Shown one piece after another: positions 7,651 through 45,217 of a stretch of DNA of 46,520 nt (positions within the stretch are counted from its first letter, which is position 1; each line of letters starts with the position of its first letter). Made by a program: the position numbers and the translations under genes. Location of the stretch: NCBI GenBank assembly GCA_010015585.1, contig ML975163.1; one strand, given 5' to 3'. The stretch comes from Eremomyces bilateralis CBS 781.70 (taxonomy: Eukaryota). The notes below the pieces were generated by a model that did not search any database, had not been told where the DNA came from, and saw only the letters and a list, made by a program, of their open reading frames with translations.

Positions 7651-7995
7651 GGCTTGGGGCACGGGATAATGGTTTTGTATAGTATCGTTTGGGACGGATG
7701 GTATCATGGTATATGTCTACGTATAGACTGGGCATAGGTGGCCCTTCGACCAGCAAATAGATGGCGGCGTCGGCGCATCCGCTATTGGAGTTGGCTTCAC
7801 TTCGTCTCATCAGCTACCTTTCGTGTATCCCAGTCCAATGTGTCGACTCCCCTGGTCTCTTGGGCGAACTCTCCTTTAGAGTGGATCACCTTGCGATTCA
7901 GCGTGTTGCAGCCATCGCACTGCCAAAATCATCCGGTCCATGCCTTCGCAGCTATAATCTCTGTACCGAACATATCCCCCCAATCCAGCCCCCTC

Positions 7996-8507
7996 TCACA
8001 AAACCGCGCTCGCCACCCCCAACAAACCCAGCCACTCCCCCCGATCCATCTCCCCTTTCCGCAACCCCAACCCCACCACGACCAGCCGCTGCTCCTCATT
8101 CCGCTTCAACTGCACCATCGCCGCGATCTGCCGCGCCAGCAGCTGCGCCACCGTATCCCTCGTTGCGTCCGCGCCGCCGAGGATCGTCGTTGCCGTTAGG
8201 TGCGAGATGGGCGGAAGGAGGCTCTCCCCCGCGTCGGAGTTGACTTGGAGCGGGGCGGTGGAGGGGTCGGGGAGGGAGGAATTTAGGAGGACGTGGACCT
8301 GGTGAGATGGTTAGCTATGGGTGAAGATGATGAGGGATTGATATCGGGTACCCAGTGCGCGAGCCGGCCGTCCTGTGAGATCGTGATGAGGAGCTTGTCA
8401 GCGAATTCGATGCATGTGGCGGAGGTTTGGATGCCATCGATTTCCTCGGTGGATGATCGAGTCGCGGCGGGATAGGCCTCAAGCTTGAGATCGGAATGGC
8501 CTTCCAT
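7996..8507 (-). CDS. Proteasome assembly chaperone 3 (PAC3/PSMG3)-like protein (exons 8507-8352, 8298-7996; about 152 aa)
   Basis: IDGIQTSATCIEFADKLLITISQDGRLAHW|VHV...LTATTILGG...QLLARQIA...RLVVVGLGL fits the PAC3 pattern. The intron gtaccc...ctaac...cag lies at 8351-8299. Confidence 0.8.
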
Positions 8508-8844
8508 TTTCAGAAGCTTTGCAGAATGCTTGAGCAGCTCACATATTGTGAGACTCAATTCTATTTCGTTTGTTATGGCGATTTCATCTTCGATGCTGGT
8601 GTTGAGGTTCCCCATCCGTCTGTTTGATTGGCCAACATCCCTGTACGCCTCTACATCATTCGCAGATGCAACTGTAAACAGTTGCGCTTTAACTTTATTT
8701 CCTGGCAGATTGAACACCTCAAAATCGATTTTACACCGAAAGTGACGTGTCATACTACTCATTTGATCCAACCGCTGATTATTCGCCACACGCGATACAT
8801 CGAACCCCTCCAGCTTGCAGAAAGCGCCCCTCCTCAGCGCCATC

Positions 8845-38825: not shown

Positions 38826-41800
38826 TTAATCGTCGTCATCGTCATCATCAAACAACGGGTCAACAGCCCCAAACAGCATTTTCCAAACGTTCCCATCCGG
38901 ATATGGCTCGAAGTCGACATAATCCCTTCGAAGGCGTCAGCATTTTTAGCAAACCCATGGAGCGTTGTAGCTTACTGTTCTACCCCCCGATTCTTATAGT
39001 GCCAATTGAGACGGTCAAGACGCTTCAGTCGATCCGTCCCTCGAGAGCTGTCTCCAAACTGAATAAACTGGAGACCAAAGAACCCTTTTTGTTTCCTGAG
39101 GGCAGAGACGAACTCAACAATTGGTGGTTCCGGGTTGTACTTCTCCGGCCAATCGCCGTCCGTGAAGACGTATATTGTCCTAGGCCTTACGGAGTCTTCG
39201 TTGTGGGCATCCACCGCGGTCCTTAGCTTTTTAAGGAACTCGTTCAGGATCTGACCTAAGCGATGCCGGATATCGCTAGGATAATGACCCTTCTTTGGCT
39301 CTTTGGCCCGCACGGCGCTCAAAAGACTGGTAGAATGCCGTTTATGGATGACATCTAATGTCGATGTAAAGCATAGATCCAGTCCATCAGGGTCATACGG
39401 TTTTACAATGTATCCTAACACATCCAGGCATTTTTCGACGTCTTGCCAATGCGGCTTCATCGATGATGAGGTGTCGATCAGGAAAACCTTCCGACTCTGT
39501 TAGATGGAAAAGGAATGGCTCGAAAACGGATGACTTACATGATCACGCTTCTCCAATTTACTTTCGAAAGTTTGCAGGTGGGGAAGAACCTCTTTGGCTT
39601 GCGATAGCTTCATTAACCGCACCTTTTGCTTCTTCCGCCACTTCCGAGCCTCCTTGACGGGAAGAAAGGGGGGTTTGTGATCGAAATTTGTGCCAGAAGG
39701 TTCTTTCGAGTTGCGTTTTGAGCGCCCTCCTACGGACGATTTCTCCTCCGATGGTTCATCCCCTTCTGGGGGAAGTTGGAACGGGGCCCTGGTATCGCGG
39801 CCGGTTGGCCGTCTAGAAGGAGCAACAGCGGCATCTGTAGCAAACAGATTCAGTTTCGGCCGTCGGTTTCTTTGGCTATCGATATTGGATGTGGCCATGT
39901 TACGACCCCGCCAGCCCAGTTTAGGCCCAAATTGCAATTGATTTCCTTCACTCTGCCCATTTCCATCTAGGTGCAGTCCTTGCATCTGGGTATCCGGGTA
40001 GACTTGGGAATATCGTTCTCTTGTTGGCGATGTTTTTAAGATCGGTGACGTTGCAGAAAATCCGGAGACCCTGCGAGTATAGACCCCATCCGGCGACAAT
40101 GGAGGTCGATCCATCTCGATTCCATCTCGCGTCCTGTAGATGGAATCATGGTTCTCGTCCTTCATCCGTGAGCCAGGCTTGTATTGGCTGCCTCCGTTGC
40201 TGGCTCCATTGTCATGGCTATCTGGAAGTAAATCCCGATCATCTAAGACCGCAGCTTGACGTGTCGGAGTGTGTGGACTGACAGGCAGAGATGACCAAGG
40301 CGTCGTCCGTGACCGGGGGGAAGTAGAAAATGGGCTGTCTCTGTGAGAGCCACGACCATCCTCTAGGATACGGCTGAACGCATTCCAAAGAATAGCTGCA
40401 CTTTGACGTCGCTCCGATGGAAGTAACATATCTTCTACCACTTCCAATGCGTCTAGAGTAATCTTGTCGGAGCGTCTGATTTCCTGGCCAAGATCCAGGT
40501 GGGTTTTCCGCACGATGTCTAAAACCCCTTTCCCGTCATGAAAACAATCAGATTCTTCAATATGGCATTTCGAGGTCTGTTCTTTGCGGAGTGCGGTGTA
40601 TTCTCGGAGCCCATTTGGACCTCGAACCACCCAAACGGCGGCTTCACTGAAGATGCAGCCTAGAGACCAGATATCGGTGCTTTTACTCACCTCCAAAGGT
40701 TGAGCATAAGCAACTTGGTCTGGATTATAGCATTCGGGGGGGCCGTATGTACGTGTGACGGTGCCGCTATATCCCACGACATCATCCTCGTCCCGTTGAA
40801 TACGGCTGAGACCTAGGTCGGCCAGCTTGAAAAGGAGTTTTCCATCTCGCTTGCACACCAGGATGTTCTCTGGCTTAACATCCTGATGGTGTATACAGTG
40901 GGTCGTTTTGTCCTTGAACTCTAGACAATGGAGAACACGAAGCGCGCGAGTCAGGGGAAGCAATGCTTCCCAAAACTGGAAAATTTCATGTTCTTTAGAT
41001 AGACTCGCATGCTCTTCGAAATAGTTTTTGAGTGTGCCTCCGTTGGCGTATTCCAGGATAAGATGGTAGGTAGGACCGTGAACGAAAGCGCCATAAAATC
41101 CGATGATAAGTTCTTCCCGATATGCATTCGAGCATCGAATATTTATAAATGCGTCGACCTCGACAGAGAACCTTTCGGATGGCGTGTTAAAAGACTTCAG
41201 GACGAATTGATTGTCCTCAGTGCTGGACTATACCTCCTGTAAGCAATTATATTTTCCAACACTGGAACCGCTTCATACCACTTACTGGAAGGAGATTGTA
41301 CTCAGGATGAATCGTAATTTGATGGGTTCTTGAACTGCCATGTTGCTGTCCAATCGGTTTGGCGTCGATAATGGGGAAAATCCGGTTGCTTTCGTACTTT
41401 CGACTGCTCCAGTATTCGATCTTTGGTGGGCAAAAGTGCCACTGTGATTCGACGAACTTTTTGAAGTCAAGATTCAACGGCCAATGTGCCGGTTTTGTTT
41501 GGAACGGAAGATGGCTATCCGATAAGCTTTCATAAACACAGAAGTGTTCGATATAGGTCCCGTTATTATTATACAGCAGGATAGCGAAGCATTTCAAGTA
41601 ACTTCGTTTGATTGCTCGTGTCTGTAGGTCCAAAGGCCTTCTGGTAGGGAATAGTTCGTGGCCGATCGCGACCAATCGCCGCTCGTCGAAATGCTTCGAA
41701 AGGGTGCTTTCTGGAACCCACCAACTGTTCACATCTTCCAAGCCAGACTCGTGACCTACTACGCCATTTACGCGCTCATCATTCACGACGTCGTGGAATT

Positions 41801-41855
41801 CGGTAACAGCGCGTTCATAGCGGGTGTGTGGGTCGCTATTTGAGCCTTGGGCCAT
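38826..41855 (-). CDS. Ser/Thr protein kinase (non-RD) with a C-terminal vWA-like domain (exons 41855-41286, 41227-39539, 39487-38976, 38925-38826; about 956 aa; alternative start 41894)
   Basis: Kinase motifs FVLK, LILEYANGGTL, HQDVKPENIL, LADLGLS, TYGPPEC and DIWSLGCI. After a disordered linker come VFLIDTSSSM (DxSxS), IYVFTDG and GLQFIQFG, which are typical of vWA/MIDAS folds. Confidence 0.88.
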
Positions 41856-43193
41856 TATGGTGAGCTGCGAATGTGCGTCGGCGGCGTGTTTCATAGGCTA
41901 AGAGCACCAATACAAGGAGTTGTCCCGCTCTCTCAGTATAGTTTGATGTTCAACGGTTGAGTAACGTGTATTATGGTTCGAGTTGGTAAAAAGACTGTAT
42001 TGAACCGCATGCAAACAGAAAAATAGCGACTAGAACCGAAGATATAAACTCAAGGATGAACGAACCAGCAACAAGGCGGCGATACAACGGCGGCTAAAAC
42101 ATCTTATAAGTCTCGGCGGGGACCAGAGGCCGCATTCTGTTTTCACTGAAGCCGCCTCGACTCCTCTGAAAGGGTTGGGAGGGTGGAAGAAGCAGTCTTC
42201 AGCCAACTGCAAGCATGCGAACCACCTCGTCCGCATTATTGTCAACGCAACTACACACTGCGCCCAGCTGCAACCCCCATGACCATCGAGGCTTTCGGAT
42301 CTCACTATGATTGGTGGTCTTGGGAGTGGGATGGATGAGTGGATGACCAAGCAAGGATGGAAGGCTGCTGGGCTGGGGATTTGGGACAGTGGCATGCAGG
42401 TTAAAGACGACGAACCAGAAGAGCGTCAGGTAATAAATAAGGCACCTTAAGGTTGGGTGGGAGAATAACAATAGATGTCCCCTGAAAAGTCTATCACGTG
42501 TTCTTGTTTTCTTGTCTTATCTCAAGCTAGTTAGTATCATACACCTTAAGTCAGATGTTCAAATGCAGTGCTCTAATTATGGTAAACTATTCTAAAAATT
42601 TATAACTAAGAGATTTTAAAAGTTCCAATCCAAGCATTGTAGCTTCCTAACCAAAGACTCGATATCGTGTTCGTGACCTGACTACATAGTACGGTACACA
42701 TGTACTAGTTAACTAACTACATTAACTTAAGTTAGTGTACCTAATTACAGGTAACTACCTATACATAGTATGCTCGGACTGTGGTCAAATGATGGTGCCT
42801 ACGAAGACCACATTGGTGAACAAAGGTGATCAATAGAGCTCCCAAGTGGTTCGTTTTATCGGTCGCACCAACCACTGATGAAATCCAGAAGAGGCGAAAA
42901 GGCGGGTGAGGGACTCTCGACAATCGTTTGAGCCTAGCTTTCGTGATCCTGTACTCCGATCGATATCAGCTGTTGAACAATCGGCCGTCCACTATGGTAT
43001 AGTTGCATGAGCAGGTCCGCCCGATTCCCACGACGGAGACATAACATGCTATATGCACTTGAAAATAACGACAAGAGTTTTAAATTGTAGAACACAGGAA
43101 CTCCCAGGTTAGAAAGCGAACCAAGTCATATTCCACAAACTTCCTTACAAGACGCGACGACAGTCAGGCCGTTATTTTTCAATATTCCAAAAC

Positions 43194-45217
43194 CTACAAT
43201 GACGCTCCGTCTAATTTGTCATCGGTACCAGACCGATCTATTTGTTTCCTTTCGCTCAATTTGTTGAGGCGACGTGAGTATTGCCATGCTCCGAATAGTG
43301 TAACTGCAGTGACAGGGAGAGCGAGCTCCAAATATAGGCATAGCGCTGGGCTCGAATACGATCTCCTTTCGACTCCTGATTCCGAGGTGGGAAATCGTAT
43401 GATATCCGTACTCATCAGCGTCTGGGGTTGTTAGATTGCCATTCGCTCCGAAAATATTGAGAGCACTCACTGATATGAAAGTCCCTGGTAAGAAGAACAA
43501 TGTGACGATCGTAATGATCCTCATGTGGACCGTTTCCGTACGCGTTTCCTCTGCAACGCGTTGCATGTCTTCGGTAATCCTGTGCATTTGACCTGCAGTC
43601 TCTTGCTGCTTAGACACAAGTTGCATGTTCATGTTTGTACTCCGTTGCTCTAGAGTGGCATGAAACTGTAACACATTCAGTATAAACCAAAAGGGCCGGG
43701 CTGAGGCTCATACCAATTGCTTGCGACCCTCCACAAGCCTCTGCAGGGCTTTTATCCTCCAGATATGCCTATCAGCGTTGTGTGTGATGCCGTCCAGAAA
43801 TTGTTGGAACTGAATCAGCGCCTTCTTCTCGGTAAGAATCTGCTCTGGAACATCCCCACTCGCGAAGAAAGTTGTGTAATGCTCTTTCAGATCTAAAATT
43901 ACCCGTTTGTTTGCATCGAGTACCAATTCAGCTGAGATAACTGTCTCTTCGATATGCTGTAGTCTTTGGAGGCCATTGAAAGTGATATCATCCTGGGATA
44001 TGGTCACTCTTGGCTTCTCGTTGGGATCTTCAGTAGAGTTTGCCAATGCGGCCGGCATAGCGTTCTCTACATCTTCAGGTACCATCCCTAGACTGGAAGT
44101 GACAGCCCTTCTGAGTTTCATGATCAAGTTGTTTGATCTCGCTGCTGGCATCGTAGCAGATCGTTCCAAAAACGGCTTCGAGTCATGGTTTGGCACATCG
44201 ATGGTTGCAAACTTTACTTTCCCGGTCATGTTCTCAACCTTTTCCTCGAGGGAATTGAGATACCATCTCCACTGCTCATCAGACCATTCGCACAGTATCT
44301 TGTGGGTCTCCAACGCGGACCTGAACGCATCCCTAGCGTCATCGAATGCCCGCAAATATTGCTTCTTAACATCTTTTGCGGCTCTTTCAAAGCGATTCTT
44401 CAGACGATCATTGCCTTTCACTATAATCCAGACAGTCCTTCCTGTACTCGTGTCAAATGAGTGGTAAATGCCTGCTTGCCGTATTGACCAGTTGGAGTGA
44501 GGTGAGCTCGATAGTGATGGTGGCTCAACAGACTTCAGGTTATAGCACAGTTGAAAGCCGTAGCCCGAACGGCCAATCTTAGGTATACGGAGTCGGCGAG
44601 ATTCCTCAGTGAAATGGTATTCCTGGCAGAACCCGCTGAAGTAAAAGTCTTTCGGTCGCTCTTGCTTGCCAAAAGGGAATAAGTAATTTAAGAAATCGAT
44701 TTTCACTTGATGATAGCTGAGAAACATCTTCATCATTCCAGATGTGATTTTCAACTTATCCCTAGAGGTTGGGGCCATCACAAATCTAGGTTTTACGTTA
44801 GACTTCCGTGGGATTGCATGGCTGAATACACTTACAGGAATCTACACATCGGATCCTCAGATCGATGGCCATTTTGATCAATGCGGCGCAGCTCTCGCCG
44901 TAATTGATCTGTATCTTTGACAGTGATGGATTCAAATTCTAAGGAGGTTATAGAGCTGATAGATACAGATGTTAAGGGGTAAGGGACACAGGGAAGAAGG
45001 AAGCCGAAACCTTACCGTCGTCTGGTGCGAGCAACTGCAGAATGTGAGCCGCAGCATGTGTTCGTTCGAATAACCTTTCCTCATTTTCCTTGAGTTTATC
45101 TTCCAGAACTTTCAAATGGTGGTCAAATATCCGCCCAGACCGCATGTTGCGGGGATAAGTGGCTGCTTCCACCAGCAATATCTCGAGCTCGTCCATGGTC
45201 GATTCCGGACGAGACAT
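43194..45217 (-). CDS. CorA-like two-TM membrane protein lacking the GMN motif (exons 45217-45016, 44938-44836, 44785-43714, 43665-43471, 43421-43194; about 599 aa)
   Basis: Large soluble N-terminal domain, long helical stalk, then MRIITIVTLFFLPGTFISTLMST (TM1) and LYLELALPVTAVTLFGAW (TM2) with a basic tail. Four GT-AG introns give 1800 nt. The acceptor of intron 1 is inferred from frame. Confidence 0.82.

Follow-up and report, generated by a model that had tools for sequence, protein, structure and literature searches.

A CorA-like membrane protein and a kinase-vWA fusion protein encoded side by side in fungal genomes: a probable two-gene unit

Introduction

Several described systems couple a protein kinase, a vWA domain or a membrane channel in ways that bear on the locus presented here. 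TRPM6 and TRPM7 are divalent-cation channels coupled to their own kinase, both parts residing in one polypeptide of TRP fold that carries an alpha-kinase, and the bacterial TerY-P triad brings together a vWA protein, a PP2C phosphatase and a Ser/Thr kinase. Further precedents are cited below for what the accessible parts of the sources state. CorA proteins can be gated by cytoplasmic ligands (PMC8865849), and a CorA effector of type III CRISPR systems is activated by SAM-AMP (PMC10600005, PMC12255297). In fungi, the vWA domain of Ste5 and Far1 serves as a kinase scaffold module (PMC3023161). Wheat Lr9 (WTK6-vWA) and other kinase-vWA proteins of grasses fuse a kinase to a C-terminal vWA, for which a part in immunity, as a decoy or a module for interactions, has been proposed (PMC10260399); these plant proteins are described as derived from receptor-like kinases, are often tandem and have a Vwaint domain, and no CorA-type partner is reported in the accessible text. 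The pairing of a regulator with a membrane executioner is exemplified by RIPK3-MLKL, fungal NLR/HeLo and protease/gasdermin pairs, reviewed in PMC12881547, whose accessible part mentions neither CorA nor a CorA-like/kinase pair.

The locus analyzed here, from Eremomyces bilateralis, encodes a CorA-like protein and a kinase-vWA protein in two neighbouring genes. It resembles TRPM6/TRPM7 in combining a presumed channel with its own kinase, and differs from them in using two genes, a CorA fold and a eukaryotic-type Ser/Thr kinase. With the TerY-P triads it shares the joint presence of vWA and kinase, but the two are fused, the partner is a putative membrane channel, and no conserved phosphatase neighbour is present. 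Plant and fungal kinase-vWA proteins have the same domain order and are of independent origin. The type III CRISPR effector, likewise a CorA-family membrane protein, is described as signal-activated, prokaryotic, nucleotide-activated and free of a kinase. Finally, the logic of regulator and membrane executioner may be common to the fungal pair and to RIPK3-MLKL, NLR/HeLo and protease/gasdermin, although their folds differ from those found here and lethality of the fungal pair is putative.

Results

Gene models and transcripts

The window, i.e. the whole 46,520-nt stretch of contig ML975163.1 (assembly GCA_010015585.1, E. bilateralis CBS 781.70) that was analyzed, carries the two genes co-oriented on the - strand, where an earlier note made from the DNA alone had placed them. 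The CorA-like gene (43194..45217, 5 exons, 599 aa) has the coding sequence join(45217..45016, 44938..44836, 44785..43714, 43665..43471, 43421..43194); in the database model P0001 (592 aa) translation begins at the second ATG, the splicing being otherwise the same. The kinase-vWA gene (38826..41894, 4 exons, 969 aa) has the coding sequence join(41894..41286, 41227..39539, 39487..38976, 38925..38826), and its database model P0040 ends early because the last intron (38926-38975) is missing from it. These models are supported by contigs from one public run (X1), apparently a culture transcriptome, its RNA nature being a guess: the contigs skip 7 of 7 introns with GT..AG ends on the - strand, 4 in the CorA-like gene and 3 in the kinase-vWA gene, and so confirm the last kinase intron. 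The intergenic region from stop to ATG (41895..43193, 1,299 nt) is nearly all covered by the UTRs of both transcripts, the kinase contig extending to 42444 and the CorA-like contig, a separate one, beginning at 42689. Both genes also have the excess of A/T-ending codons that had been claimed for them, with GC3 values of 0.512 and 0.518 vs 0.801 in a comparison with the LYS4 ORF only.

The CorA-like protein

The CorA-like protein is built of an N-terminal alpha/beta domain, a disordered loop, long stalk helices and two C-terminal TM helices. An AF2 model of P0001 (pLDDT 65, pTM 0.61) was compared with known structures by Foldseek, and the top matches were all T. maritima CorA (3jcf_A with E 2.7e-8 over ~520 columns, target TM 0.55-0.60). 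As modelled, the protein has the overall CorA fold, alike over the whole chain to the CorA/Mrs2/Alr1 proteins (2-TM-GxN; T. maritima 3jcf, 4i0u, 2iub), with which it shares the alpha/beta domain, a stalk helix running into TM1, a short outer loop, TM2 and a basic tail. TM1 (...ITIVTLFFLPGTFIS; 43471..43527, - strand) closes exon 4 and is followed directly by a conserved intron. The pore-mouth loop (43398..43421, - strand) reads T-L-M-S-T-D-I-I where CorA has Y-G-M-N-F, in agreement with the description of the protein as GMN-less, and TM2 (43284..43349, - strand; helix 542-580 in the AF2 model) precedes the basic C-terminal tail.

Unlike CorA/Mrs2/Alr1, the protein has neither G-M-N nor G-x-N in its loop; among the 44 dereplicated loci of the family, S-T-D is found in 38 and G-M-N in none (0/44). 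It is further set apart by an extra N-terminal segment, by the disordered loop of ~70 aa, by its pairing with a dedicated kinase, and by failing to reach the PF01544 gathering score: P0001 gives no match, exon 4 gives only a local one at TM1 (E 0.88), and the best relative stays at E 0.028 and 14.2 bits against a cut-off of 27. Since the pore loop lacks both the G and the N of 2-TM-GxN, channel activity is only predicted; the protein is presumably a pentameric membrane channel. The disordered cytoplasmic loop (43993..44208, - strand; P0001 residues ~288-359, pLDDT <50) contains basophilic R-x-x-T and R-R-x-x-T sites, R-x-x-[ST] being found in 17 of the 18 rows of alignment A2 and R-R-A-V-T-like sites in several loci. 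Judged by these motifs, the sites are candidate phospho-acceptors.

Concerning family membership, the Pfam 38.1 entry PF26616 'CorA-like' is the precomputed annotation of P0001 and of all 39 database matches, and the Atlas clusters are 95-100% PF26616. Its members are Ascomycota proteins named 'CorA-like transporter domain-containing protein', and a literature search found no paper that mentions PF26616, hence neither a published function nor a gene partner. The gene is under purifying selection by rough estimates, dN/dS of the large exon being 0.14-0.51 (9 rough pairs, metagenome contigs).

The kinase-vWA protein

The second protein consists, in this order, of a fungal N-domain, a non-RD (HQD) kinase, a linker and a vWA domain. 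Exon 1 (41286..41894, - strand) encodes the N-domain, which is specific to fungi, and the first kinase strands, with conserved L-S-D-x-x-L-P-F and Q-W-x-F-C motifs. The N-domain matched no Pfam family and its nearest Atlas clusters, from Ascomycota, are unnamed; profile A4, built on it, has 3848 representatives at E<=1e-3, and a Pkinase domain follows the N-domain in 18 of 19 long matches. The catalytic domain (approximate limits 40352..41227, - strand) matches Pkinase (PF00069) with E 7.6e-23 and 81.7 bits vs a cut-off of 31.7, and has the F-V-L-K lysine, H-Q-D-V-K-P-E-N and D-L-G. The H-Q-D (40880-40888, - strand; residues 317-319) bears out the earlier assignment as a non-RD kinase. At this position the 29 readable homologs show HQD 23 times, another residue 6 times and HRD never (0), while the catalytic lysine, N and D-x-G are conserved, a residue pattern compatible with catalytic activity in a non-RD kinase.

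A low-complexity linker of ~270 aa (39539..40351, - strand), poorly conserved in alignment A1, connects the kinase to the vWA domain and its conserved acidic tail (38829..39487, - strand, split by intron 38926-38975). The putative MIDAS motif is D-T-S-S-S (39461-39475, - strand), and the T-D-G loop with its Asp is also present. A MIDAS-like D-x-[SAT]-x-[ST] is found in all 21 sequences that cover the domain, with Ala replacing the first Ser in 5/21 and Thr in 2/21, hence metal binding may not be universal. Profile searches stayed below threshold: the Pfam matches of the domain have E 0.006-0.015, VWA scoring 17.3 bits vs 23.8 and VWA_2 and VWA_3 being likewise sub-threshold, just 1 of 11 relatives reaches E 0.0023, and a PDB profile search gave no match. 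The fold was assessed on an AF2 model (pLDDT 81) of the domain from an intronless homolog, L017:8962-9588, which is 30% identical to the window's exon. Its top Foldseek matches are all vWA or I-domains (E 3.4e-5), as are the 50 entries retrieved by VIA (Z 13.3-9.9). Judged on this homolog, the C-terminal domain appears to have a Rossmann-like vWA fold. The domain names given in the earlier note are accordingly kept, Pkinase lying above the Pfam threshold, and vWA and CorA lying below it but supported by fold.

The largest exon of the kinase gene shows dN/dS of 0.43-0.87 (5 rough pairs, metagenome contigs). Neither window protein has a Pfam match to NACHT, NB-ARC or HET domains, and PADLOC returned generic kinase matches only, with none for the CorA-like protein of the window.

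Linkage, rearrangement and co-diversification

For the linkage survey, 79 metagenome loci with the CorA-like family were fetched from one metagenome collection with two peptide patterns; linkage is seen from the side of the CorA-like gene. A kinase-vWA homolog adjoins the CorA-like gene in 50/79 loci and in 34 of the 35 with >=3 kb on both flanks. Dereplication leaves 52 clusters, of which 31 are positive; among the 24 with enough flank, 23 are. L003/L004 make up one full-flank cluster without a kinase, and in one cluster (6 loci) the partner is reduced to N-domain and N-lobe. As a control, recurrent ORF families were counted in 26 dereplicated loci of >=9 kb: CorA-like occurs in 26, the kinase N-domain in 24 and the kinase/vWA part in 24, the next families (5 and 4 loci) are antisense ORFs over the CorA-like and kinase genes, and true neighbour families are common to at most 3/26. 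The 86 ORFs in the flanks are a mixed set, most of them encoding metabolic enzymes, transporters or transcription factors. They include no PP2C phosphatase and no recurrent third family, and the analogy with TerY-type systems, of which this phosphatase is a defining member, therefore fails. Several pairs border AT-rich, ORF-poor DNA.

The pairs are arranged in tandem in 21 clusters, divergently in 9 and reversed in 1 (n=31). The arrangement has changed at least 5 times on either tree with adjacency kept, and median gaps are 913 and 1531 nt despite these changes. In a co-phylogeny of 25 pairs, the Mantel r is 0.855, a value reached by 0 of 2000 permutations, and 12/22 tree splits are shared, where permutations give 0.27 on average and never more than 4. 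This congruence of the two gene trees could partly reflect shared species history. With the flanks otherwise unconserved, linkage of the homologs far exceeds chance expectation, and the proposal that the two genes make a unit stands.

Discussion

Given that almost all related fungal stretches examined carry the two genes next to each other, they are probably one unit, and it is highly probable that this is a functional unit of some kind; a literature search found no description of a CorA-like/kinase-vWA pair. The interpretation we favour, tentatively, is a conserved two-gene module of Pezizomycotina in which a CorA-fold membrane channel is served by a dedicated cytosolic regulator. The vWA, with its putative metal-dependent MIDAS site, and/or the fungal N-domain would sense a signal, and one or both would dock the regulator on the cytoplasmic part of the channel. 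The kinase would then phosphorylate the disordered S/T-rich loop ahead of the stalk helices, and this phosphorylation would gate cation flux through the channel. As output we expect an ion-flux or stress signal that is conditional, not the housekeeping uptake of Mg2+. A sensor kinase gating a cation channel is the most likely mechanism, its gating step being what we infer, and the roles of vWA as sensor, kinase and pore effector assigned in the earlier note are plausible.

It should be noted that the large size and divergence of the family agree with a conflict system no less than with ion signalling. The same module could have a lethal output, the kinase-vWA protein sensing non-self or damage and the CorA-like protein acting as a membrane-permeabilising executioner in a defence or allorecognition pair, which we consider possible although unlikely. 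By analogy, it would be a counterpart of RIPK3-MLKL across Pezizomycotina, a so far undescribed cell-death or innate-immunity module in which the non-RD kinase, informed by its vWA and N-terminal sensor domains, would switch a closed, GMN-less CorA-fold pore to a lethal state, the effector fold being the one found in the CorA effectors of prokaryotic type III CRISPR systems; this version, too, is doubtful. Points that lean this way are the non-RD state of the kinase in 29/29 readable homologs, the large and fast-diverging families (the 3848 N-domain representatives among them), the AT-rich, ORF-poor DNA next to several pairs, and a GC3 of 0.51-0.52 vs 0.80 in LYS4. One homolog only, P0217, lies inside a single 3799-aa model together with NB-ARC/TPR and NACHT-like/ANK parts, but this may be a merged gene model. 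HET-domain ORFs flank 2/26 loci, which means little given how common HET genes are in such fungi. The selection estimates point both ways: the values for the largest kinase exon speak for a defence role and the purifying selection on the CorA-like gene against it. Together with a strongly conserved pore loop, the low dN/dS of the latter makes the protein resemble a selective channel and not a crude pore. Also at odds with lethality are the mostly metabolic, transport and regulatory genes in the flanks, the spliced X1 contigs covering both genes in what is apparently a culture transcriptome, and the merely generic kinase matches of PADLOC.

The accessible parts of the literature offer parallels for such an output, namely the action of kinase-vWA fusions in plant immunity (Lr9/WTK6-vWA, PMC10260399), the CorA-family membrane effector of prokaryotic immunity (PMC10600005) and a 'CorA TM region' family expanded alongside HET in a lichen fungus (PMC3897900). 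Likewise, mimpvic32 of Morchella importuna is a polymorphic CorA-domain gene that maps to a vegetative-incompatibility region (PMC8940278), but it differs in being annotated with PF01544, is only a mapping candidate, and has no annotated kinase in its region, for which 23 genes are annotated, in the part of that source accessible to us. Of the defence or allorecognition module proposed in the earlier note, the two-gene unit therefore holds, and the defence role is suggested by analogies and weak hints.

A third explanation, which we judge improbable, reverses the link or makes it indirect: the CorA-like protein would conduct or bind a metal or ligand sensed by the MIDAS of the vWA while the kinase signals elsewhere, or both proteins would belong to a co-regulated pathway without contact. 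The first form agrees with the conservation of the putative MIDAS motif, with the binding of divalent cations by MIDAS sites and with their transport by CorA relatives; divergent head-to-head pairs (9/31 clusters) and the nearly abutting UTRs in the window agree with shared regulation. However, a Mantel correlation of this size with shared deep clades is more typical of contacting partners, and replacement of the first MIDAS Ser by Ala or Thr in some homologs argues against a common metal signal. That adjacency is functionally meaningless, a product of inherited synteny or chance, is strongly disfavoured and very improbable: linkage was surveyed from the CorA-like side only and some clusters may be close relatives, yet nearly all dereplicated clusters with enough flank are positive where other neighbours are hardly ever shared, adjacency outlasted the rearrangements, and the CorA-like proteins are just ~30-40% identical across the set.

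Returning to the favoured module of channel and dedicated regulator, its interest lies in the families involved. PF26616 'CorA-like' proteins and N-domain kinases are large fungal families without known function, and the near-constant adjacency of their members in the loci surveyed makes of these orphans a single system open to testing, predicting a cognate regulator for a putative channel with an unusual pore motif. To our knowledge, the S-T-D motif differs from that of every studied CorA, and we know of no organism with a CorA-type channel that has its own dedicated kinase. If the output is ion signalling, the pair would represent such a channel; if it is death, it would represent a new effector class in the immunity of fungi, with parallels in other kingdoms, namely the kinase-vWA resistance proteins of plants and the CorA effectors of bacteria.

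Linkage and co-diversification of the pair

In the window, which comes from a member of the Dothideomycetes (Eremomyces bilateralis CBS 781.70), the CorA-like gene is the upstream member of the pair and the kinase-vWA gene lies 1,299 nt downstream, both on the minus strand (38826-45217). JGI metagenomes were scanned with the CorA-like alignment (A2) and two peptide patterns, which matched 174 stretches, 138 of them confirmed. The best 80 make up 79 loci, which were searched by tblastn with 11 proteins of the kinase-vWA family. Scored in this way, from the CorA-like side only and for a pattern-selected subfamily of a single collection, a kinase-vWA family member adjoins the CorA-like gene in 50 of the 79 loci (34 tandem as in the window, 15 head-to-head and 1 with the kinase first). 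Nearly all of the 29 negative loci are short contigs. The linkage of homologs expected from the two-gene module proposed in an earlier note is borne out, seen from the CorA-like side, by 34 of the 35 loci that extend 3 kb or more to each side; dereplication at 90% nucleotide identity left 52 clusters, 31 of them positive, or 23 of the 24 with enough flank.

The single clear negative (L003/L004) lies in AT-rich DNA without long ORFs, and L003 has the CorA-like gene on its own in this DNA. Such AT-rich, ORF-poor DNA (GC 0.04-0.40) borders or splits some pairs (L024:11800-18000, L003 throughout, L027:8000-10504), as if these tracts were degraded repeats, and at L024 a 6.2-kb insert of this kind splits the pair. 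One cluster comprises six loci (L068, L069, L074, L075, L076 and L078; ~7675-8800, minus strand) in which the head-to-head partner aligns with the kinase family over residues 1-277 only, covering the N-terminal domain and the N-lobe, and is either a truncated pseudogene or a functional short form.

As a control for flanking genes, every ORF of 90 aa or longer in 26 dereplicated loci (minimum 9 kb) was clustered. Only three families recur: the CorA-like gene in 26 loci, and the N-terminal domain of the kinase and the kinase/vWA part in 24 each. Those next in frequency, found in 5 and 4 loci, are antisense ORFs over the same pair genes, and genuine neighbour families recur in no more than 3 of the 26 loci. 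Scanned against Pfam, 86 flank ORFs form a heterogeneous fungal set (dehydrogenases, permeases, Zn-cluster factors, NRPS, chitin synthase), with a HET domain in the flanks of 2 loci and neither a phosphatase nor an NLR core domain among the 86. A common third gene of either kind was thereby ruled out, there being no recurrent family to supply it.

Gene trees were built for 25 pairs from approximate proteins made of joined HSPs, 7 of 32 pairs being left out for short coverage. The two trees have 12 of 22 splits in common (permutation mean 0.27, maximum 4), and their patristic distances correlate with r 0.855, a value reached in 0 of 2000 permutations; this congruence may come partly from shared species history, and orthologs and paralogs are not separable among these metagenome loci. 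Gene arrangement changed at least five times on either tree, yet the two genes kept close together, with a median gap of 913 nt in tandem and 1531 nt in divergent pairs. Rough Nei-Gojobori dN/dS values were 0.14-0.51 for the largest CorA-like exon (9 pairs) and 0.43-0.87 for the largest kinase exon, linker included (5 pairs). Pairs with dN of about 0.4-0.5 (for the kinase, those with L045, L053, L064 or L071) were dropped as comparisons of non-matching ORFs on truncated contigs, and the L049/L050 pair, with one synonymous difference, is uninformative.

Gene models and transcripts

The CorA-like gene, join(45217..45016, 44938..44836, 44785..43714, 43665..43471, 43421..43194) on the minus strand, encodes 599 aa; in the database model P0001 (592 aa) translation begins at the second ATG of this CDS, and the splicing is the same. 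The kinase-vWA gene, join(41894..41286, 41227..39539, 39487..38976, 38925..38826) on the same strand, encodes 969 aa. Contigs from X1, a single public run whose RNA nature is only guessed, skip all seven introns of both genes exactly, with GT..AG ends on the minus strand. Together with the homologs they give a second kinase intron of 51 nt and favour the 969-aa model, in which the last intron is 38926-38975 (50 nt). The database model of the kinase (P0040, 937 aa) misses this last intron and reads on to a stop, losing the acidic tail after the vWA domain that, in the alignment, is common to all homologs.

The two genes fall on separate X1 contigs. That of the kinase reaches at least 550 nt 5' of the ATG (to 42444) and that of the CorA-like gene runs at least 505 nt beyond the stop codon (to 42689), so that the UTRs almost meet within the interval 41895-43193, which makes read-through or shared regulation possible. 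Small ORFs at 42030-42471 fall within these UTRs. The richness in A/T-ending codons previously remarked on is reflected in GC3 values of 0.512 and 0.518 for the pair, against 0.801 for the ORF taken for LYS4, an identity that is putative.

Three intron positions are kept across the families (alignments A2, A3 and A4). In the CorA-like gene the intron directly follows TM1 (…F-I-S / T-L-M-S-T-D); in the kinase gene one intron comes behind L-D-x-G-L of the vWA domain and another behind H-P-x-Y-N-x-L, where the N-domain exon ends. Prokaryote-style gene calls on the metagenome contigs end prematurely at these same positions.

Architecture of the kinase-vWA protein

The protein is built of four parts, an N-domain of ~200 aa, a kinase, a low-complexity linker of ~270 aa and a C-terminal vWA-like domain. 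The N-domain matches no Pfam family, and the Atlas clusters nearest to it are unnamed ones from Ascomycota. A search with its profile (A4) gave 3848 representatives at E<=1e-3, of which 505 reach E<=1e-30; many of the representatives are exon-sized gene calls, and in 18 of 19 long matches the N-domain is followed by a kinase domain; a word search for longer proteins with this domain returned only that of the window.

The kinase domain matches Pkinase with E 7.6e-23 and keeps the Lys, the Asn and the D-L-G; its H-Q-D makes it non-RD. This assignment, already made in the earlier note, extends to the family: of the 29 homologs readable at this site, 23 carry HQD and none HRD. PADLOC returned generic kinase models only.

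By sequence, the C-terminal domain barely touches the Pfam vWA models, and a PDB profile search with the vWA alignment gave no match below E 0.9. The window's own domain is split by an intron; the fold was modelled in an intronless homolog (pLDDT 81), for which the top Foldseek matches are all vWA or I-domains, with VIA Z from 13.3 to 9.9 over 50 entries. The window protein carries a MIDAS-type D-T-S-S-S and a T-D-G loop, and all 21 sequences covering the domain have a MIDAS-like motif, the first Ser being replaced by Ala in 5 and by Thr in 2. The tail after the vWA domain (window 38829-38925; D-I-V-D-T…G-N-x-W-K-M-L-L-G…D-P-W-F-D) is conserved and corresponds to residues 170-209 of the vWA structure model m1b551d01ebe2, with pLDDT <50. 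Acidic, flexible and beside the MIDAS site, it could be an intramolecular ligand.

Two database relatives with the N-domain and kinase, P0049 and P0075, have ankyrin repeats in place of the vWA domain, which indicates that the C-terminal module of the family is exchangeable. Another relative, P0217 (3799 aa), begins with ~900 aa of a kinase-vWA homolog, followed by NB-ARC/TPR and then by a NACHT-like NTPase with ankyrin repeats; its H-L-G instead of H-x-D makes it probably a pseudokinase, and the whole represents a genuine fusion or else adjoining genes merged into one model.

The CorA-like protein

The protein fails to reach the classical Pfam CorA model. In precomputed annotation PF26616 ('CorA-like') is assigned to the window protein and to all 39 relatives found, and likewise in the Atlas clusters. 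The best structural matches of its AF2 model (pLDDT 65, pTM 0.61) are full-length T. maritima CorA chains (E 2.7e-8, ~520 columns). Where CorA has G-M-N, the pore loop of the window protein has S-T-D; T-[LIVF]-[MF]-S-T-D-I is found in 38 of 44 family clusters and G-M-N in none, so the description 'GMN-less' holds for the family as well.

Within the disordered loop (P0001 residues ~288-359), where pLDDT is <50, 17 of the 18 A2 rows have conserved basophilic R-x-x-[ST] sites. A separate R-x-x-T count of 15/24, from loop sequences derived from HSPs, was set aside as unreliable because HSPs skip the loop. In one subfamily the otherwise variable loop contains a strongly conserved Y-T-D-P-D-S-G-L-S-Q-P-L-P-P (A2 columns ~400-420), a motif with no counterpart in the window's clade which might serve for docking or as a degron-like element.

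Possible role of the pair

The literature searched, which covers few subscription journals, contains no description of the CorA-like/kinase-vWA pair, no mention of PF26616 and no CorA and vWA combination in fungi; an earlier mention is possible.

The evidence fixes the unit, not its function. A role in cell death or defence, as first proposed for the pair, seems to us rather unlikely. The non-RD kinase, the fact that both families are large and divergent, and the degenerate H-L-G homolog joined in one gene model (P0217) with NB-ARC/TPR and NACHT-like/ANK parts speak for it. By analogy, so may the plant kinase-vWA proteins that act in resistance (PMC10260399) and the CorA effectors linked with CRISPR (PMC10600005). 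A further point is a Morchella mapping study in which a polymorphic CorA-domain gene is named an incompatibility candidate, but no kinase is annotated in that candidate region, as covered by Supplementary Table 7 up to gene 17 (PMC8940278).

We favour a sensor kinase that gates the CorA-like channel, a reading which fits the conserved, CorA-unlike pore loop, the purifying selection on the channel and the ordinary genomic surroundings. The sensor kinase would dock through its vWA domain, its N-domain or both, and once docked would phosphorylate the disordered CorA-like loop, whereby the channel would be gated.
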